Part shown: positions 57,599-64,000 of the stretch, piece after piece
How the letters are laid out: each line of letters starts with the position of its first letter
Numbering within the stretch: the first letter of the stretch is position 1
NCBI GenBank assembly: GCA_017457295.1
Contig: JAFTHS010000040.1
Coordinates: forward strand, 25,786 to 89,785
From: Paludibacteraceae bacterium
Lineage (GTDB): Bacteria > Bacteroidota > Bacteroidia > Bacteroidales > Paludibacteraceae
Direction of reading: 5' to 3'
Length of the DNA stretch: 64,000 nucleotides
Position numbers and translations under genes: made by a program
The notes under the pieces: generated by a model
What the model was told of the DNA's origin: nothing
Seen by the model: the letters and a program-made list of their open reading frames with translations, nothing else
Database searches by the model: none

Positions 57599-57622
57599 CT
57601 GATTTATAGTTTTTTGTCGAAT

Positions 57623-57681
57623 CCAAAATTCTCAAACACTCTCTCCCAAATTCTCAAAGTATCATTCCCAAATTCTCAAAC
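57623..57681. repeat. Three direct repeats CCCAAATTCTCAAA(C/G) at 22-bp spacing
   Basis: Units at 57623-57637, 57645-57659 and 57667-57681, just upstream of the AAA ATPase start. Confidence 0.9.
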
Positions 57682-57726
57682 TCGGTGCAAAATTACTATA
57701 TTTTTGTGAACTATGCAAGTTTTTAG

Positions 57727-58158
57727 GTGTATTTTTTTGAAAAAAGTTTTTGGGTGCTGAATGTTGTGCTGAAAGTTACCTGCAAGTTTCGGGACCACTA
57801 TAGGAGATCTGTGGGATATCTGTAGGCTTTCTGTGGCTGTATTAGGTCGCTCTTTTAATCACTCTCAAGTTGACTGCGGGCTACGCGATCACTTCGCGAC
57901 CACTGTAGCACATCTGCTGCCTAGTTGTATCACAGCGGTGGCTTTGTGTTTTCACCTTTTCGTTTTCCATATGCCTCTATATATTATAGGGGTGCTGAAT
58001 ACTCAGCGTTTTAGTGGTTTGGTGCTGAATATTTGAGATTTTTGGGAATAAAATGGTATATACAACACGCGGGAAGTGTAGTGTTTACTAAGATTCCCGC
58101 GTGAGTGTATTTTTTTGAAAGAAGTTTGTGAGTGCTGAATGTTGTACTGAGAGTTATC
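57727..58158. repeat. Copy B of the dispersed composite repeat, bounded by 54-bp direct repeats
   Basis: 57727-57780 and 58105-58158 are 48/54 identical. Internal modules match 23074-23314 in inverted orientation. GTGCTGAAT occurs four times. Confidence 0.85.
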
Positions 58159-58172
58159 AATCATCAGCAAGG

Positions 58173-58970
58173 TTATTCCTTCACTTTCGTATGCGCTACA
58201 ATGTGAATACTCAATTCGTAAAGCAGGTATAGCGGTACTGTCACCAACAACAAAGTGAATATATCCGCAGTCGGTGTAATGACGGCTGACAAGATGGCTA
58301 ACACTACTATTGCATGTTTGCGGTATTGTACCAATAGCGGTTTGTCTATCAATCCCAATTTTGCCAAGAAATAGGCAATGATAGGTATCTCAAATAATAT
58401 GCCCATAAGCAATGATAACACCAATAGTGTTGATATATACGACTTTAGTGCAATCTGATTAACAACCATCTCTTGTACTTGATAGGTACTTAAGAATCGA
58501 AATGCGAAGGGGAATATCACAAAATAGTTGAGCAATACGCCCATGGCAAACAATATCACGCCAAAGAATATCAGCAGTATTGAATAGCGCTTTTCTTGTG
58601 TGTATAGCGCAGGAGCGATAAAGCCATAGAGTTGGATGATGAGATATGGGAACGCTACTAACACGCCCATAATGACTGCCACTTGCAAGTGCGTAGTGAA
58701 TTGCGATGCTAATTCGATATTGATAAACTCAATAGCGAAATCTCCTGGGCATAGTGCAGGCATAGACAATCGCTCTGCTAACCAACACAATCCGCGATAG
58801 AGAATAAAGTCGGATTTGGATGGAGCAAAGAGTATGCTGAAGAGTGCGTCCTTAAAGCAGAACGCAGCAATAGCGCATACTAACCACACTGCCAAGCAAC
58901 GGAAAACAACCTTTCGGAACACTTCTACATGTTCCCAAAAGGTCATTTTCTCCTCGTTATTATTTTTCAT
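58173..58970 (-). CDS. tatC: Twin-arginine translocase subunit TatC
   Basis: [12 protein letters not shown]…, six TM segments, FEIP and TPTAD motifs. The true start may be Met9 (58946). Confidence 0.92.
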
Positions 58971-59184
58971 CTTGGTTTGGTTGCTGTTCGGTAGACTGTT
59001 GCGATGGTTGATCTTTTAAGGGGCGTTTTACTTCCTCCTCCATCTCATTCATTCCCTGTTTGAACATCTTTACGCCTTTACCCATTCCTTTCATTAGCTC
59101 TGGAATTTTCTTGCCTCCAAATAGCAATAGCACAATGAGAACAATAAAAATAATCTCAGGTGCTCCTATCATCAATAGTGTCAT
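58960..59184 (-). CDS. tatA: Twin-arginine translocase subunit TatA/E
   Basis: 74 aa with a single TM, hinge [12 protein letters not shown], an amphipathic helix and an acidic tail. Confidence 0.9.
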
Positions 59185-59186
59185 GA

Positions 59187-59396
59187 TTAGATAATTTGAA
59201 TGTTAATACTATTCATGTTTTTCCATAAGAATACGAGTACCCATATTGCAATCAAACAAAGTATAGCTATAGTCGTACTAATTACAGCCACTTTATTCCA
59301 CACTCCGTGTTGTCTATTAAACCAACGGATAAGAAAGATGGCGAAGACAATAGTACTAACGCTAATAATTGCTAATAGAATGACCCCTATATTCAT
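59187..59396 (-). CDS. Small two-TM membrane protein, operon member, unknown function
   Basis: 69 aa with two ~20-residue hydrophobic helices. 4-nt overlap with the upstream gene; ends 2 nt before tatA. Confidence 0.55.
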
Positions 59397-59668
59397 TGTG
59401 GCATATTTAAATATATCTCACAAGTGTCAAAATTGATTTCCCAATGTCCACCTTCGCAAGATTCCCAGTTGTATTTAGTTGCCATGTCATCCCACCATTG
59501 TTGGAACTTGCTGCCTGTTTCGCCCATATCTTTTACGAGCTTTTCATACAACTCTGCGTTATCAGCAGTGAGAATCTTTGCCAATTCGGTCAAACCATTT
59601 CGACGCTCAAATAGCGTTTGAATGGTGTTTTTTTCTTCGACAGTTACCTGTCCTACAAGTTTTTTCAT
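59393..59668 (-). CDS. CXXX repeat peptide modification system accessory protein (91 aa)
   Basis: Size, position and operon context fit the NCBIfam-named accessory protein of this system. Assignment is from memory of the family, not from a search. Confidence 0.55.
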   Translation of the reverse strand: MKKLVGQVTVEEKNTIQTLFERRNGLTELAKILTADNAELYEKLVKDMGETGSKFQQWWDDMATKYNWESCEGGHWEINFDTCEIYLNMPQ

Positions 59669-59669
59669 A

Positions 59670-60623
59670 TTAAAATTCCTCCTTTACCTCAAATGGATCT
59701 AAATATGTGATTTCTTTTATCTCGTTATTGACTACATACCCTGCCTCTTTCAATTGTAATTGCAAATCGCGTGCAGCATTGCGCTCAAGGTGCGAGATGA
59801 TACATTGTTGGCGCGATGGGGTGTTGTTGTCCCATGTGAGTTTTTGATTGAGCCAAATACAACGATTGCAATGGTATGCATCACAAATGCGACAAAGTGG
59901 CGCATGGTCAAGTTGCAAGAGTTGTTTGTTTGGAATGTCAAGCCCTCTCTCTAAATCTCCTACACTACGCGAAGCATCTTTAGTCTTGTGATTCATGCGA
60001 TTGCTAATGCCCATCTGCTCATCATAATAGAATGCGGGGCAGAGGTAGAACTTTCCATTAGGTGCAAGCGTAATATTGCCAATACCTGCTTCACAATTGT
60101 GCATCTCGGTCAATTGCAAACGGTCTGTCAAGATGTTGAGTTGTGGGTTCTTTGCTTGCTTGTATAGATTGAGCAAAACGGCATTGAGCGTTGCCAATGC
60201 TTTTTTGTAATCTTCAATCTGTTCATCAGTAAATGATTCAATATTCGTCAAGCAGATATTGAGACGCGTGGTTTGTGGCAAGAGTGCTGCAATATCGTAT
60301 TGCTTTGCAATAAACTCGGCAATCGTCAAGCGCAATACAATATTGTCCGTTTCTGCTATTGTTGGCACAGAATCAAGTACTTGCACCTCACGTCCAATCT
60401 TCACATGGTCAATCGTCTCAATGAGTTCGTTGTATTCCGTAGGGAGTTCGTAGTCGGGATATACAAACTGAATCATCAAGTTTTGTTTCATACCAAAGAG
60501 GATTGCTTTGCGCAAGGTCTCCAATGGCATCAACTTTCGCTCTGTGAGCGGATTATTAGCATGGCAATAAGCCACGCTGGTGTCATCCAATAGGATAACC
60601 AAATATTGCAAATATGGTTTCAT
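59670..60623 (-). CDS. SPASM-domain maturase paralog lacking the radical SAM CX3CX2C motif (CXXX repeat peptide maturase-like)
   Basis: 317 aa with no CX3CX2C motif. C-terminal C-x16-GKFYLC…CRICDAYHCNRC…C is a SPASM-like seven-Cys signature. Confidence 0.65.
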   Translation of the reverse strand: MKPYLQYLVILLDDTSVAYCHANNPLTERKLMPLETLRKAILFGMKQNLMIQFVYPDYELPTEYNELIETIDHVKIGREVQVLDSVPTIAETDNIVLRLTIAEFIAKQYDIAALLPQTTRLNICLTNIESFTDEQIEDYKKALATLNAVLLNLYKQAKNPQLNILTDRLQLTEMHNCEAGIGNITLAPNGKFYLCPAFYYDEQMGISNRMNHKTKDASRSVGDLERGLDIPNKQLLQLDHAPLCRICDAYHCNRCIWLNQKLTWDNNTPSRQQCIISHLERNAARDLQLQLKEAGYVVNNEIKEITYLDPFEVKEEF

Positions 60624-60626
60624 TGC

Positions 60627-61850
60627 TTAGCAGATAATGTCGTTTGACGATTTCTTGTTTTGCTCAAATTCCTCGCGCTTGCCTTCTAATTCTAGTTTGC
60701 GGTAGAGCTTGTTCCAATAATAGTTGTTGGCACGCACACGCGCTTTGTGCATTTTGCAAATAGCGGTTGCACGTTCAAAGACGGTGTGCGTCTTGGCTGC
60801 ATCGTAGTTCTCGCCTTGGCACCAAGCACATCCCTCTGCTACTTCGCAATCTACGCACTCGGGCAAAGATTGGGTACAAAGATCAAGTGTAAGAAACGGA
60901 CGGAGTTTATTATTGTCAATTCCATCGTGAATGTTTCCGACAATCCATGCCTCTTTGTCACGAAGTGAGTATTGAGCGAAGCGAGTGCATGGGTAGAAAT
61001 TACCTGCTGCATCAACCGCTAACATCTTACCTGCACCGCACCAGTTTTGATTTTGTAATTGGCAATCTAAAGGTTTACCCATATTTTCGGAGAAGAAAGA
61101 ACATGCATAGTTTCTATATAATTCTTTATCTATGATTGTATCTGCCAATTGCATAAGTTGTTCCTCAAAGCGTAAGTCATCGCCTTCAGCCCATACATTC
61201 TCAAATACGCAGTTGATATTCACTTGATGAATGCCTAAGTCATAGAGGTGCAAAACAGATTCGCAGATATAGGGTATATCCGCAGATGAGATAGTCACTT
61301 TCGTGCCATCGCCAGGGAATTGGCTTTGCCATAGTGGTATATTCCTTACTACATCATCATACGAACCGCGTTCTGGACCATCACCCTTCCATATACGGTT
61401 AAGGTCGTGCTTGCGGCGAGTACCATCAATAGTAATACCAATACTTAGGTGTGATTTATTTTTCTCAATGAAGCGTTGTACTTTCTCGCTGGCATAGTTA
61501 ATACCATTGGTAGAGAATGAGAAACGATAGGAATTAAACCAATGGTGATTGCGACGGAAAAGTTCTTGTTTGATATAGTCGCAGATCTTGTCTATAAGGT
61601 CAATTTCTAGAAATGGTTCTCCTCCTATAAAGTCCCATACAACAGACTCGTACGCAAAGTTTGGATCATTTTCTCTATCCAATACATAATCAATAGCTGC
61701 CTTTGCTACTTCAAAAGGCATACGTTCCTTCTCGTTTTTGCCTACCAAATAGCAGTATTTGCAGGCAAGTTGGCAATCTTTGGTGACGATAAAGGTGATG
61801 TTTTTAGAAATTCCTGCTTGCCAAACACCATTGTATTTTTTTATTTGCAT
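60627..61850 (-). CDS. Radical SAM/SPASM peptide maturase (CXXX-repeat target family)
   Basis: C26-x3-C30-x2-C33 (DCQLACKYC). SPASM domain CGAGKMLAVDAAGNFYPC…CVDCEVAEGCAWC…C. 407 aa. Confidence 0.85.
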   Translation of the reverse strand: MQIKKYNGVWQAGISKNITFIVTKDCQLACKYCYLVGKNEKERMPFEVAKAAIDYVLDRENDPNFAYESVVWDFIGGEPFLEIDLIDKICDYIKQELFRRNHHWFNSYRFSFSTNGINYASEKVQRFIEKNKSHLSIGITIDGTRRKHDLNRIWKGDGPERGSYDDVVRNIPLWQSQFPGDGTKVTISSADIPYICESVLHLYDLGIHQVNINCVFENVWAEGDDLRFEEQLMQLADTIIDKELYRNYACSFFSENMGKPLDCQLQNQNWCGAGKMLAVDAAGNFYPCTRFAQYSLRDKEAWIVGNIHDGIDNNKLRPFLTLDLCTQSLPECVDCEVAEGCAWCQGENYDAAKTHTVFERATAICKMHKARVRANNYYWNKLYRKLELEGKREEFEQNKKSSNDIIC

Positions 61851-61927
61851 AGTATCTGAATAAATTCATTATGAACAATTACCATAGAAGATAAAATTGT
61901 ATCAACTATGGTAATCATTCCATTATT

Positions 61928-62158
61928 TTAACTGATAAGTGCCAATAAAGCTTTAATATCGGGTACACACCAATCTTCCAATGTATTACCCGCAAATATC
62001 AAAATAAAATTTCCATAAAAAGGTGAGTTCTCTATATTATATGGGAGATGATAGTAATGAATCACGCCATAATTTTTCAACTTATCATTTGATACACAAC
62101 GCCATTTTTGATTGGTAGCTAACCAATCAGCTTCTATTGGGGTTATTGCTCTCCTCAT
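61928..62158 (-). CDS. Hypothetical 76-aa protein between the precursor and the maturase
   Basis: ATG-initiated ORF 22 nt downstream of the precursor stop and co-directional with it. No motif recognised. Confidence 0.4.
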   Translation of the reverse strand: MRRAITPIEADWLATNQKWRCVSNDKLKNYGVIHYYHLPYNIENSPFYGNFILIFAGNTLEDWCVPDIKALLALIS

Positions 62159-62180
62159 AATTGCAATTATGGTTCATAAA

Positions 62181-62474
62181 CTAAAAATAAGCCTGTGAGC
62201 CACAACTTGTAGTACATTTGGTTTCACAACTGCCTGAGCATGAGTTTTGACAACCAAATTTACAACTACCTTGACACATACTGTGGCATGTGTTTTCGCA
62301 AGATCCCATACAAGAATTAGAACAACTAAGACCACAACCTGTTTCAGCTGCTTGCATTACATTAGGCATACTTGCCATTACTACTGCACCAACAACAGGC
62401 AATGCAGCTTTTGCGGCTTTTTTGAAAAACTCTCTACGCGATTGGAGTTCTTCGTTTTGTTTTTTGTTAGACAT
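62181..62474 (-). CDS. Tat-signal CXXX-repeat precursor peptide (radical SAM target)
   Basis: 97 aa with SRREFFK twin-arginine motif and a hydrophobic h-region. Twelve Cys fall at residues 47, 51, 55 … 91, exactly every fourth position. Confidence 0.85.
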   Translation of the reverse strand: MSNKKQNEELQSRREFFKKAAKAALPVVGAVVMASMPNVMQAAETGCGLSCSNSCMGSCENTCHSMCQGSCKFGCQNSCSGSCETKCTTSCGSQAYF

Positions 62475-62880
62475 AAAACTTAAGTTTTTGTTGTATAGGA
62501 ACTCCCAACTATACGGATTATTGGTTAAGTATAGGCATAAAATAAAAAGCGTGGAGTCCGACTATTGCCGTTCCATGCTCTGAGGCTGTCGCATTGCCTT
62601 ACTGATAAAACGACAACGCGAAGCCCACGCCGAATATAAATATTCTCCGTGCTACACAGTTAAGGTACGCGTGTGCGTATGTACATATACGCAAATGGCG
62701 TACCAAAATAGGCACAAGAGGGATAATCTATATCCCGTAGGACATCTACCGTTGCTATGTTCCTATCAGTTTGAAACTTGCGACATTTCAGAGCATCAGA
62801 ACAGAGCGCTAATAAACGCCTTTTAAATATGTCTGCTACCCCCGCCGATGACGTGCAGACATCCCCGGCGTGGAATTGCG
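62475..62880 (-). promoter_or_regulatory. Long (~400 nt) hairpin-rich 5' leader or independent sRNA upstream of the precursor gene; class unknown
   Basis: Lies between a consensus promoter (62885-62916) and the precursor ATG. Contains an 8-bp hairpin (62829-62862) with a possible pseudoknot, a nested 7+7-bp hairpin (62664-62704), and a T-run at about 62540-62550. Confidence 0.45.
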
Positions 62881-62884
62881 GGTG

Positions 62885-62916
62885 CAAATATACAACATTT
62901 TTTTGACATGACCAAA
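62885..62916 (-). promoter_or_regulatory. Bacteroidetes-type promoter (-33 TTTG, -7 TATATTTG) driving the leader and precursor operon
   Basis: On the minus strand, TTTG (62913-62916) and TATATTTG (62885-62892) with a 20-nt spacer. Confidence 0.55.
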
Positions 62917-62972
62917 TAAAAATGCCATTTATGCGAATTTAGCATAAATGGCAGAGGTGTTTTGGCTTATAA
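62913..62972 (-). terminator. Rho-independent terminator of the kinase-like gene; copy 2 of the element at 19008-19067
   Basis: 12-bp perfect stem tgccatttatgc / gcataaatggca (62923-62953) followed on the minus strand by TTTTTATTT. Confidence 0.75.
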
Positions 62973-63058: not shown

Positions 63059-63865
63059 TTATTTTCTAATAAATTTTACGATGCAATCAATACAAATAGG
63101 AGTGTCGGAAACAGCATCAATAAACACATTTGCAGGGTGCATATCTTCTAAGTGTAAGCGTTCTCCAATATAATTTACGCCTCGTCCATCTCCGTTATCA
63201 CGAAAGCCCTTTTGAGCAACCATGAGATCTATCTCTTGCTTGGTAGCTAATCGTTTGCAAGTAACATAGGGTTGCGTACAAATAATACGGAACATTCCTT
63301 CGGAATCGCGCGTAAAGCCAATCACATTCATAGGAGTTTCTGCAAAGAGTGCATTGTGCAATACGATAGATTCTAATGCTCTGCCAAGTGTGGCATAGAT
63401 GGATGTACGAAGCTTGATGACAGAGGTGTCGCCATTTTGGTAATAAACTTTGGCTTCTGCTCCTTGGGCAATCATCGGACCATATTCCACTTCGATATCC
63501 TTTTCGGCATTATCGAACCATATACCTCTGACTTCTGCCCATTGACGAACCAGTTTCTCTTGAAGTTCGTCTATCTCCCAATTTCCTGGGCTAATTTGGC
63601 TTGCTGAAGCATTTGCACTTGCTTCAAGGCTTGTTCGCGCGTAGCAGCTGACGATGTACGCCCCAATGAGCATCTCACCTGCGCAGCAGAGACCTGCATG
63701 CTCCGCTTGATTGAATTGAGTAAGGTTTGTTTTTCCATTGAGTATGTCGTTTGTGAAATTATCAATCAGTTGTGTTGTTTGCTCTGAAAATCCGTTATAA
63801 CGAATAGCAGCATAGATTGATTCTATGCTTATTGGCGATGTGCTATTCAATAGTTCTTCTGACAT
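63059..63865 (-). CDS. Minimal protein-kinase-like fold protein (Bud32/RIO/Kdo-kinase-like) with unknown N-terminal domain
   Basis: AQGAEAKVYY (Gly-loop-like), SVIKLR (candidate Lys), LEDMHPANVF (catalytic-loop-like), ICIDCIV (DFG-equivalent). Confidence 0.5.
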   Translation of the reverse strand: MSEELLNSTSPISIESIYAAIRYNGFSEQTTQLIDNFTNDILNGKTNLTQFNQAEHAGLCCAGEMLIGAYIVSCYARTSLEASANASASQISPGNWEIDELQEKLVRQWAEVRGIWFDNAEKDIEVEYGPMIAQGAEAKVYYQNGDTSVIKLRTSIYATLGRALESIVLHNALFAETPMNVIGFTRDSEGMFRIICTQPYVTCKRLATKQEIDLMVAQKGFRDNGDGRGVNYIGERLHLEDMHPANVFIDAVSDTPICIDCIVKFIRK

Positions 63866-63895
63866 GATTTTCTATGCAATTTATAATTCTGCCTG

Positions 63896-63903
63896 CAAAG
63901 ATA
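63896..63903 (-). promoter_or_regulatory. Candidate -7 box (TATCTTTG) for the kinase-like gene
   Basis: The reverse complement of caaagata matches TAnnTTTG, about 30 nt upstream of the ATG at 63865. Confidence 0.4.
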
Positions 63904-64000
63904 CACTTTTTTTTTGAGATGTACAAGGCATGAATGATTTTTGAGCAATTTTTTTTAGGATCTTTCTTGCATATGTCAAAATTAAACAGTACTTTCGAAC

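Follow-up and report, generated by a model that had tools for sequence, protein, structure and literature searches.

The operon at positions 58173-62916 of the DNA analysed here is probably a self-contained cassette for the maturation and export of cysteine-ladder peptides. This DNA, the window in the following, is a 64,000-nt stretch of contig JAFTHS010000040.1 from a gut Bacteroidales bacterium of the Paludibacteraceae. An ORF check of the window recovers eight open reading frames at the positions given beforehand, all on the minus strand like every other feature of the operon discussed below, and bears out the junctions between an 11-nt overlap and a 77-nt gap that had been reported in a preliminary description of the locus. 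Independent contigs from ENA and Logan carry the same eight-gene block. A survey of about 160 related loci reduces the proposed eight-gene system to a core of six, namely the precursor or precursors, a radical SAM/SPASM enzyme, its paralog, a 91-aa protein, tatA and tatC. The two remaining genes are present here and sporadic elsewhere. The 76-aa ORF (61928..62158) has no Pfam or NCBIfam match and homologues in only five of the surveyed loci; judged by homology, it is outside the conserved part of the system. The 69-aa ORF (59187..59396), which overlaps the 91-aa gene by 4 nt, has no Pfam or NCBIfam family either and homologues in about 10 of 160 loci. With its two hydrophobic stretches it looks like a two-TM membrane protein encoded by a sporadic accessory gene.

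The operon is preceded by a promoter of the Bacteroidota type at 62885..62916, with the -33 element TTTG at 62916-62913, a 20-nt spacer and the -7 element TATATTTG at 62892-62885. The form TTTG-N20-TATATTTG corresponds to the Bacteroidota consensus and not to classical sigma-70, and in a motif scan of the minus strand it is the sole TAnnTTTG with a -33 box from 63100 down to 57695, where the next gene has its promoter. Both this promoter and a leader of about 400 nt had been proposed before; the leader measures about 405 nt. In operon order, the genes are separated by gaps of 22, 77, 3 and 1 nt, followed by a 4-nt overlap, a 2-nt gap and an 11-nt overlap. With the starts chosen by public gene callers, which shorten TatA to 70 aa and TatC to 257 aa, the last two junctions become gaps of 14 and 13 nt. 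A stable intercistronic hairpin at 61873..61920, an inverted repeat with a folding energy of -22.9 kcal/mol and a z-score of -4.6, separates the precursor and 76-aa genes from the enzyme genes and may, for example, set the ratio of precursor to enzyme. Downstream of tatC, a hairpin with a 10-bp stem and an 18-nt loop (58066..58103) lies in a region folding with -34.1 kcal/mol (z -6.7) and is the likely 3' end of the transcript, in agreement with the end assigned previously. A simple terminator scan missed it because its loop exceeds 8 nt. This hairpin adjoins one copy of a 52-nt direct repeat (58105-58156 and 57727-57778, 90% identical).

The core of the operon had been recognised as the 'CXXX repeat peptide modification system' of NCBIfam, and the HMM comparison supports this assignment. 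TIGR04114, TIGR04115, TIGR04116 and TIGR04119 all score above their curated cut-offs and far above chance, and the genes are adjacent and in canonical order, so that family scores identify the locus as a member. We take this system to be a computational definition by Haft and colleagues, made from sequence only. The system is widespread, and all taxa in which we found it are anaerobes. The literature we searched contained no paper mentioning the CXXX repeat peptide modification system, and we found no description of its product, its reaction, a family-wide Tat signal, an embedded tatAC pair or the leader RNA; the curators' descriptions may mention the Tat signal.

The radical SAM/SPASM peptide maturase of the CXXX-repeat target family (60627..61850) scores 621.2 bits with TIGR04115 against a cut-off of 350. 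It carries CxxxCxxC at residues 26-33 and has no N-terminal RRE domain. An intact and highly conserved enzyme of this peptide-maturase clade is present in every locus surveyed. Its second-best NCBIfam match is the PapB model NF047865 with 184.8 bits, below the cut-off of 340. The SCIFF model TIGR03974 gives 112.7 bits against 425, with an alignment running from model position 96 and residue 15, and TIGR03906 (QhpD) gives a weak match of 97 bits. The only PDB sequence match is CteB (nearest solved structure 5WGG, E 4e-25). By these similarities, thioether-forming maturases are the closest to our enzyme. Its paralog (59670..60623; TIGR04119, 208.4 bits, cut-off 150) had been described as a SPASM-only protein. 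It does keep the SPASM cysteines with two auxiliary-cluster sites, but the remainder is more than a SPASM domain. An hhalign comparison connects it to the radical SAM family (95.6%, E 1e-8), and an AF2 model with pLDDT 89 has CteB as its best Foldseek match over the full length (TM 0.60-0.65, E ~2e-8). As modelled, the paralog is a complete but degenerate radical-SAM/SPASM fold of the CteB/anSME type, a pseudo-radical SAM protein that lacks the SAM-cluster motif. The 91-aa protein (59393..59668; TIGR04116, 99.8 bits, cut-off 50) is highly conserved, with 6567 clusters in a homology search. Its AF2 model (pLDDT 87.6) has no Foldseek match in the PDB (best E ~2) and is unlike known leader-binding and Tat-chaperone folds. 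One relative fuses the radical SAM enzyme to the paralog, and two others fuse the paralog to the 91-aa protein, which argues for a complex.

The 97-aa precursor (62181..62474) consists of a twin-arginine signal (SRREFFKKAAKAALPVVGA...) and 12 C-X-X-X units, with exactly three residues after each of its 12 cysteines. The Tat-type motif SRREFFKK, followed by AAKAALPVVGAVVMASMP, fits S/T-R-R-x-F-L-K with a moderately hydrophobic h-region, and the signal is likely cleaved near MQA/AETG. Among the listed NCBIfam and Pfam families, no Tat-signal model matches at E <= 0.01 apart from a weak, sub-threshold TIGR02811; the precursor is a predicted Tat substrate on the strength of its motif. Its score with the repeat model TIGR04114 is marginal (21.7 bits, cut-off 20) with 12 perfect repeats visible, and that with the paralog model TIGR04117 is 41 bits, below the cut-off of 50. 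The Tat signal claimed initially is supported here by its motif and is common across homologues. The motif is kept in 165 of 180 distinct homologues, and conservation extends beyond it to a consensus EELQSRREFFKKAAKxALP, with L at +12 in 79% and P at +13 in 88%. The arginine pair is present in 140/150 Bacteroidales-type precursors and in 34/38 from distant clades, including the cultured Anaeroselena agilis. Overall, about 90% of CXXX precursors carry the signal, non-Bacteroidales clades such as Negativicutes included, and from its distribution the Tat signal is a family-wide trait. The repeat cores contain 22.6% cysteine and small residues, and cysteine is the sole invariant position. Asp and Glu are scarce (3-6% at each repeat position), and cysteine occupies i+4. 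Many substrates of the system are not small peptides but predicted lipoproteins of 150-590 aa, and with them the label 'RiPP-like' shades into protein maturation. Long precursor paralogs carry a lipobox.

tatA (58960..59184) encodes 74 aa, or 70 aa if translation begins with the ATG at 59172, and matches TIGR01411 with 66 bits against 53.9 as well as PF02416. tatC (58173..58970) encodes 265 aa, or 257 aa when the ATG at 58946 is the start, and matches TIGR00945 with 153 bits against 132.7 and PF00902 with 196 bits. By these scores both are genuine tat genes. Their junctions are tight, tatA starts within a few nucleotides of the 91-aa or 69-aa gene across loci, and the motif scan of the operon strand finds no consensus promoter in front of tatA of the kind that would have set the pair apart; both genes are predicted to belong to the transcription unit of the precursor. 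The preliminary description had asked how often this linkage recurs. tatAC is embedded in 71 of 78 Bacteroidales-type loci with enough flank versus 1 of 17 distant ones. By this count, the adjacency is strongly enriched in the clade of the present locus and embedding is clade-specific, set against the family-wide Tat signal. With tatAC missing from 7 of the 78 and most distant loci, the CXXX system as such does not depend on a dedicated translocase. In loci without tat genes, we find no recurrent alternative exporter or leader peptidase. In a sub-variant of two loci, KK or RK replaces RR, an ABC transporter lies upstream and the 91-aa gene is absent.

Within the leader, about 290 nt (62541..62832) form a conserved structured RNA, which goes beyond the leader of the initial description. 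Strong covariation across about 68 loci, retrieved with nhmmer, supports a structured RNA in the 5' UTR, one previously undescribed. It adopts a rod-like fold in which the 5' and 3' ends are paired and terminates with CCACGC and a U-tract. Compensatory changes occur in 18 of the 21 pairs that form the long-range helix. For the whole tested structure, 93% of cells pair versus about 45% in slid controls, and none of 500 shuffles reaches the observed pairing values. The MFE z-score is -6.4. Searches of Rfam 15 gave no match beyond chance miRNA-level matches, with E <= 1 over the region and E <= 10 for the element alone. As for a possible terminator/anti-terminator switch, the 3' strand ACGCUUUU stays complementary both to an internal GGCGU and to the 5' AAAAGGCGU, two pairings that covariation cannot separate. 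The leader RNA is a candidate riboswitch or attenuator.

Several observations could be read differently. The leader may act at the DNA level, as a mobile repeat or a promoter segment that inverts, or encode a small protein, instead of being a regulatory RNA. Bacteroidales often switch surface proteins by invertible promoters between inverted repeats, the element is flanked by a 9-bp inverted repeat (AAAAGGCGT/ACGCTTTTT) and occurs upstream of several other kinds of surface-protein genes, and a 75-aa ORF overlaps it in the window. Yet the helices contain 267 G.U pairs versus 15 A.C pairs and therefore reflect strand-specific pairing. Insertions of variable length fall between the conserved helices, and the promoter lies outside the element, upstream at a fixed distance (50-57 nt from the RNA core in most related loci). 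An open reading frame spans the element in just 15 of 68 copies. We regard a DNA element or gene as very improbable. Unlikely, to a lesser degree, is that tatAC serves these Bacteroidales merely as their housekeeping Tat system, placed by chance beside its most abundant substrate, and that the cluster is an ordinary CXXX system lacking dedicated export. Precursors of other phyla have Tat signals with the tat locus elsewhere, seven Bacteroidales-type loci lack an embedded tatC, and only one tatAC pair is visible in the 64-kb window. Against this, genome bins with two CXXX clusters contain two tatAC pairs, one per cluster, and the pairs of one such bin are separate and diverged (tatC 75% and 92% identical). 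One locus has duplicated paralog, 91-aa and tatA genes. The closeness of tatA to the preceding gene with no promoter motif points in the same direction, and the precursor is the only ORF of the window with a Tat-like motif.

The chemistry of the ladder allows for a further alternative, in which the cysteines are loaded with Fe-S clusters or metal in the cytoplasm and not covalently cross-linked. The paralog with its two auxiliary-cluster sites would be a scaffold or donor, and the product a periplasmic or surface peptide that binds metal or sulfide or carries electrons. The need for Tat would come from a holo-peptide already folded around its cofactor, as in classical Tat redox proteins; cofactor-containing proteins classically use this route. 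The cysteine-rich cores with cysteine alone invariant, a paralog that keeps SPASM cysteines yet cannot cleave SAM, and the anaerobic lifestyle of every taxon found are in line with such loading. Every locus, however, has an intact radical SAM enzyme of the peptide-maturase clade, for which cofactor insertion has no need known to us, and the nearest characterised relatives of this enzyme all make covalent peptide modifications. Nor do we know of an Fe-S or metallothionein motif with a regular C-X3-C and Gly, Ser or Thr in between. We consider metal loading doubtful.

For the preferred reading, a maturation-and-export cassette, comparative genomics and knowledge of the families suggest modification in the cytoplasm followed by Tat export. 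Transcription from one promoter would yield the structured leader RNA, and this RNA probably controls whether transcription reads through into the operon. The precursor would be made in the cytoplasm, where its twin-arginine signal probably doubles as recognition leader for a modification complex of the active radical SAM/SPASM enzyme, the degenerate paralog with its auxiliary Fe-S cysteines and the 91-aa partner. This complex would act on the cysteines of the (C-X-X-X)n core, modifying the core at or through them, most likely by intramolecular thioether cross-links. Acceptors need not be acidic and could be the backbone C-alpha or Ser/Thr/Gly side positions; with Asp and Glu this scarce in the repeats, the cross-link chemistry is a guess. 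We propose that the rigid cross-linked product is exported folded by the minimal TatA-TatC of the operon because it cannot be threaded through Sec. Signal peptidase I would remove the signal from short forms like the present precursor, and lipoprotein processing would apply to long lipobox paralogs. In its mature form, this Cys-rich peptide would be cross-linked and redox-insensitive, and would reside in the periplasm or on the surface of a strictly anaerobic cell. As a tentative generalisation, CXXX products may be a distinct and very abundant class among the secreted peptides and surface lipoproteins of anaerobes, Tat-dependent and cross-linked after translation, with an RR signal doubling as RiPP leader and a ladder of thioether 'disulfide surrogates' installed before export by a radical SAM enzyme and a pseudo-enzyme. 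Gut and rumen Bacteroidales cassettes would bring their own TatAC and share their control with other surface-protein genes, through a new class of large structured leader RNAs.

Among known systems, CteB/SCIFF (PDB 5WGG, 5WHY) shares the sequence match of the enzyme, the fold match of the paralog and a Cys-rich peptide substrate in anaerobes. CteB differs by its N-terminal RRE, and the alignment of our enzyme starts at CteB residue 94. Given the low SCIFF score and the missing RRE, we reject membership in the SCIFF/CteB system; to our knowledge, SCIFF peptides have no signal peptide. QhpD also introduces Cys thioether cross-links with a radical SAM/SPASM enzyme into a small cytoplasmic protein that later works in the periplasm. 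QhpC, the gamma subunit of quinohemoprotein amine dehydrogenase, is a single substrate with no repeat ladder, and its export reportedly uses a dedicated ABC-type exporter with a subtilisin-like leader protease and not Tat. PapB, the freyrasin maturase, is likewise a radical SAM/SPASM enzyme, and its NCBIfam alignment starts near residue 1 as does that of our enzyme, so that an N-terminal RRE extension is apparently lacking in both. The PapA substrate repeats cysteine at i, i+4 spacing as CX3D (PMC9413430). The spacing is shared by the precursor, but its i+4 residue is Cys and not Asp/Glu, and the rarity of acidic residues rules out PapB-type Cys-Asp chemistry. Besides the sub-cut-off PapB score, this locus differs by the added pseudo-radical SAM paralog and 91-aa protein and by a Tat signal in place of a conventional leader. 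For the export part, a known likeness is the minimal TatA-TatC pair of B. subtilis that is dedicated to one substrate and linked to its gene. There, TatAdCd is the specific exporter of PhoD, whose gene shows an association with the tatCd operon (PMC3827258). PhoD, an ordinary enzyme, comes without modification machinery, whereas tatAC lies here inside a peptide-maturation operon and is duplicated along with it.

The locus is a genuine member of the database-defined, uncharacterised CXXX repeat peptide modification system, in which the precursor carries a cysteine at every fourth residue. The ORF listing of the window places eight minus-strand genes exactly where the preliminary description had put them: the precursor (62181-62474), a 76-aa ORF (61928-62158), the radical SAM enzyme (rSAM, 60627-61850), its paralog (59670-60623) and, from 59668 down to 58173, the genes of a 91-aa and a 69-aa protein, tatA and tatC. 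Their assignment to this system and the identity of the Tat genes are borne out by profile scores above the model cut-offs, namely TIGR04115 for rSAM (621 vs 350 bits), TIGR04119 for the paralog (208 vs 150 bits), TIGR04116 for the 91-aa protein (99.8 vs 50 bits), the TIGR04114 repeat for the precursor (21.7 vs 20 bits), TIGR01411 for TatA (66 vs 53.9 bits) and TIGR00945 for TatC (153 vs 132.7 bits). The 76-aa and 69-aa ORFs gave no family match in the profile searches. Judging by homologue names, the host belongs with the uncultured Bacteroidales of gut and rumen, Paludibacteraceae for the most part. The founding paper of the CXXX system is reportedly that of Haft and Basu from 2011; we found no paper on the system in the literature searched, and a Bacteroidales RiPP-mining paper does not cover it.

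The precursor is separated from the 76-aa ORF by 22 nt and the latter from rSAM by 77 nt. Gaps of 3 nt and 1 nt follow between rSAM and paralog and between paralog and 91-aa gene, the 91-aa and 69-aa genes overlap by 4 nt, tatA begins after a 2-nt gap, and tatA and tatC overlap by 11 nt. With the alternative starts of public gene callers (TatA 70 aa, TatC 257 aa), the last two junctions become gaps of 14 and 13 nt. An identical eight-gene block is present on independent ENA and Logan contigs. Inside the 77-nt gap, between the precursor and 76-aa ORF on one side and the enzyme genes on the other, lies a hairpin (61873-61920, minus strand; -22.9 kcal/mol, z -4.6) that might set the precursor:enzyme transcript ratio.

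The operon promoter at 62916-62885 (minus strand) reads TTTG-N20-TATATTTG, the Bacteroidota consensus. Only three TAnnTTTG sites are found on the minus strand between 57600 and 63100: this promoter, a site in the precursor CDS that lacks a -33 box, and, at 57695, the promoter serving the next gene. There is therefore no consensus promoter ahead of tatA or tatC, in line with their proposed place as last cistrons of the unit. A generic sigma-70 scan returned 15 sites compared with 17.9 in shuffled sequence, i.e. no excess, and a promoter-like site inside tatC (58352-58325) was set aside because of this count and because the Bacteroidota consensus differs. A 42-nt similarity, which goes beyond the short -33 and -7 boxes, is common to three minus-strand promoter regions (57677-57718, 62874-62915 and 63885-63926) and amounts to 62-74% relative to the operon's promoter. 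Downstream of tatC is a 10-bp hairpin (58103-58066, minus strand; region -34 kcal/mol, z -6.7) that adjoins a 52-nt direct repeat. The two copies of this repeat (57727-57778 and 58105-58156, 90% identical) flank the region from tatC to the next gene, an AAA_14/DUF4143 ATPase gene with three tandem 22-nt units (TCCCAAATTCTCAAAC...) in its 5' UTR at 57622-57687. The upstream neighbour (63059-63865, minus strand) encodes a protein with the Kinase-PolyVal domain (PF18762), which typically occurs in polyvalent proteins of mobile elements, and ends at a bidirectional terminator-like hairpin (62923-62953).

The only PDB sequence match of rSAM is CteB (5WGG, E 4e-25). CteB has an N-terminal RRE, whereas the rSAM alignment begins after this domain, at CteB residue 94. 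Membership of rSAM in the two families of characterised thioether maturases, PapB (185 vs cut-off 340 bits) and SCIFF (113 vs cut-off 425 bits), was rejected, and the acceptor-motif test failed for both too. The second maturase had been described as a SPASM-only paralog. Its SPASM cysteines are indeed kept, but the protein extends beyond a SPASM domain: residues 95-294 align with rSAM residues 183-385 (profile-profile, 95.6% probability, E 1e-8), and a complete radical-SAM/SPASM fold is predicted because the AlphaFold model (pLDDT 89, pTM 0.87) superimposes over its whole length on CteB (TM 0.60-0.65, E ~2e-8) and also on anSME. A single conserved Cys stands in place of CxxxCxxC, and with the SPASM cysteines kept the paralog is therefore better described as a pseudo-enzyme than as a mere SPASM domain.

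The 91-aa protein gave 6567 clusters in the homology search (90% identity clustering), mostly from gut and rumen metagenomes, and is highly conserved, with 79-99% identity in the best 120 of these. Its AF2 model, predicted from a comparatively shallow alignment, has a three-stranded sheet and four helices (pLDDT 87.6) and no PDB match by Foldseek (best E ~2). Given this confident model without a match, assignments as RRE, PqqD-like protein or NapD-like signal-peptide chaperone are unsupported. Natural fusions of rSAM with paralog and of paralog with 91-aa protein, among the homologues P0248 (700 aa), P0228 (442 aa) and P0269 (538 aa), indicate that these three putative maturation proteins act together.

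The system-specific paralog, which forms 586 clusters at 50% identity, served as survey marker. With one genome scanned per GTDB species, at least 592 paralog loci turned up, in at least 592 species-representative genomes. The closest 80 were fetched with 10-kb flanks (50-95% identity, all Bacteroidales), 80 further loci came from a metagenome scan seeded with a distant clade, and all were annotated with custom HMMs made from the window proteins. The conserved genes run from precursor (1-5 copies) through rSAM, paralog, 91-aa gene and tatA to tatC. The eight-gene unit described earlier is thus present here, but two of its members lie outside the conserved order, as the 76-aa ORF recurs in only 5 of the fetched loci and the 69-aa ORF in ~10.

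Where a locus extends at least 1.5 kb past the 91-aa gene, tatA and tatC are both embedded in 71 of 78 cases of Bacteroidales type compared with 1 of 17 in the distant clade, which takes in Negativicutes, Spirochaetales and other Bacteroidota. The adjacency of tatAC to the CXXX genes, asked about from the window, is thus strongly enriched in the Bacteroidales type. The Tat signal seen on the window's precursor recurs in both groups (RR motif in 140/150 and 34/38), and precursors lacking it are mostly ORFs truncated at a contig end. Anaeroselena agilis, a cultured species, has a precursor reading TRRDFIKRAGLALP, and its CXXX locus has no tat gene within 10 kb. Two genome bins with two CXXX clusters each carry a separate tatAC per cluster, with 92% identity between the tatC copies of one bin and 75% between those of the other. 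Given the near-universal RR motif in both groups, the tatAC adjacency and the duplicated tatAC, we conclude that the Tat signal is a family-wide trait and that the embedded translocase is a Bacteroidales elaboration travelling with the cassette. Loci without tatAC show no recurrent replacement exporter or leader peptidase. A sub-variant with divergent signal (L095 8323-8538, L096 2890-3093, L101 1850-2101) has short precursors of 67-83 aa with 5-6 Cys and the core CTGGCGGQCLSGCKDECITVS. RR is changed to KK in L095 and to RK in L096 and is kept in L101; the 91-aa gene is absent from all three, and L095 and L096 have a large ABC transporter upstream. This sub-variant may be a natural counter-example with export independent of Tat.

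Over 165 distinct precursors, a phylogenetically non-independent sample, the signal follows the pattern EELQ-S-RR-E-F-F-K-K-A-A-K-x-A-L-P; position +12 is L in 79% and position +13 is P in 88%. Since this conservation extends well past the Tat motif, it suggests that the signal may double as recognition leader for the maturation proteins. Short precursors, as in the window, have 75-130 aa, 7-16 Cys and a signal-peptidase-I-like end. Long precursors have 150-589 aa and up to 73 Cys (for example L006 8124-8765, L068 7968-8741, L119 773-1771 and L146 6919-8688), some carry extra non-repeat domains, and many of their signals end in a lipobox L-[ST]-[SA]-C. The lipobox Cys is often followed by acidic residues, as in the export signals of Bacteroidota surface lipoproteins. 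CXXX-repeat ORFs without leader occur directly upstream of rSAM in L036 (8362-8574) and L049 (8536-8784); with 70-82 aa and no signal peptide, they could be genuine cytoplasmic variants or frames open by chance.

Within the cores, 2750 of ~3100 Cys-Cys spacings are exactly three residues. Gly takes position x2 in 37% of repeats, and Ser, Thr or Gly position x3 in 70%; Asp and Glu make up 3-6% and Pro 0.2%. PapB acts on CX3D motifs, where it couples Cys with Asp or Glu (PMC9413430), an acceptor essentially absent from CXXX cores. As Cys is the only invariant residue, the chemistry must, judging from the repeat pattern, act on Cys or by way of it, and its partner must be a non-acidic residue or the backbone.

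In dozens of loci, the sequence ahead of the first precursor gene matches the ~400-nt leader at the nucleotide level, and these loci reach Prevotella-level relatives with proteins only ~50% identical. With an nhmmer profile we counted 68 copies of 216-330 nt (e.g. L004 7637-7934, L082 6819-7144, L025 6697-6928); the single copy in the window spans 62832-62541 on the minus strand. The element was not detected in the Bacteroidales sub-clade L067-L079 nor in distant clades. An alignment of 40 sequences over more than 400 columns has conserved blocks separated by variable insertions, and RNAalifold predicts a long-range helix between 5' and 3' blocks with both-sided changes in 18 of 21 pairs. Over all 32 pairs tested, 93% of cells are paired compared with ~45% with a slid partner, and 0 of 500 shuffles attained the values seen. 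The window leader alone folds into the same rod with paired ends (z -6.4). The RNA has a closing helix plus U-tract. Its 3' strand ACGCUUUU has two possible partners, an internal GGCGU and the 5' AAAAGGCGU; covariation cannot separate the two pairings, which could be terminator/anti-terminator alternatives.

A non-RNA explanation of this leader is contradicted on several sides, and we hold it to be very improbable. G.U pairs exceed A.C pairs by 267 to 15, so the pairing belongs to the transcribed strand and not to a DNA inverted repeat. In most copies 50-57 nt (about 52 nt) separate the consensus promoter from the conserved core downstream of it; a promoter is present within 130 nt upstream in 54/68 copies (background 0.06) and between leader RNA and next gene in only 3/68. 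Strand specificity and promoter position speak against an inverton, as does against a small ORF the frame being open across the element in only 15/68 copies; both readings were rejected. Nor is it a known RNA, having no match in Rfam 15. A CXXX precursor starts within 400 nt downstream of the element in 48 cases. Other copies precede Sec-signal envelope or surface genes (BspA-type LRR (LRR_5), OMP beta-barrel, LysM, Fib_succ_major, DUF3332), as in L007 16537-16777, L036 12714-12974, L047 1545-1312 (minus strand), L077 14673-14904, L025 6697-6928, L032 6727-6960 and L080 6148-6475, and some envelope genes are inserted between leader RNA and CXXX precursor. We read the element as a 5' regulatory leader for secreted and surface cargo genes and as a candidate for a new class of riboswitch or attenuator in Bacteroidales, where few such classes are known to us.

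For the peptide itself we favour, with moderate confidence, a scheme in which the Cys ladder would be modified in the cytoplasm by a complex of rSAM, pseudo-rSAM and 91-aa protein, the cross-linked and hence folded product would be exported by the TatAC of the cassette, and the signal would be removed last. Judged by the enzyme's nearest relatives, the cross-links would most likely be thioethers. Loading of the Cys ladder with a cofactor or metal appears unlikely next to such cross-linking. Equally doubtful is that the translocase is merely a housekeeping Tat. A survey of TatC (PMC3827258) offers no detail on Bacteroidales. The window has one tatAC pair, and its precursor is the only ORF there with a Tat-like motif; the distant clade mostly has the signal without adjacent tatAC, and each cluster of the two-cluster bins has its own.

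What is new here is the combination of family-wide Tat signal, embedded translocase and new leader RNA; the CXXX system itself was already defined in databases. The system is abundant: the 91-aa marker forms 6,567 clusters, and the paralog occurs in at least 592 species-representative genomes. The Tat route would offer a clean genetic handle on it. Should the products prove to be thioether-stapled peptides of the surface or periplasm, a role in envelope biology, in metal or redox chemistry or in gut interactions is conceivable. The leader RNA is large, shows unusually clear covariation, has no Rfam family and precedes several kinds of surface-protein genes. Radical-SAM peptide maturation systems normally come with a leader peptidase and an ABC exporter. 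A family whose export signal is of Tat type, with a translocase of its own in the gut Bacteroidales members, would bring RiPP biosynthesis together with folded-protein export, fields that seldom touch. The nearest precedent known to us for such a substrate-linked translocase is PhoD of B. subtilis with TatAd-TatCd (PMC3827258).
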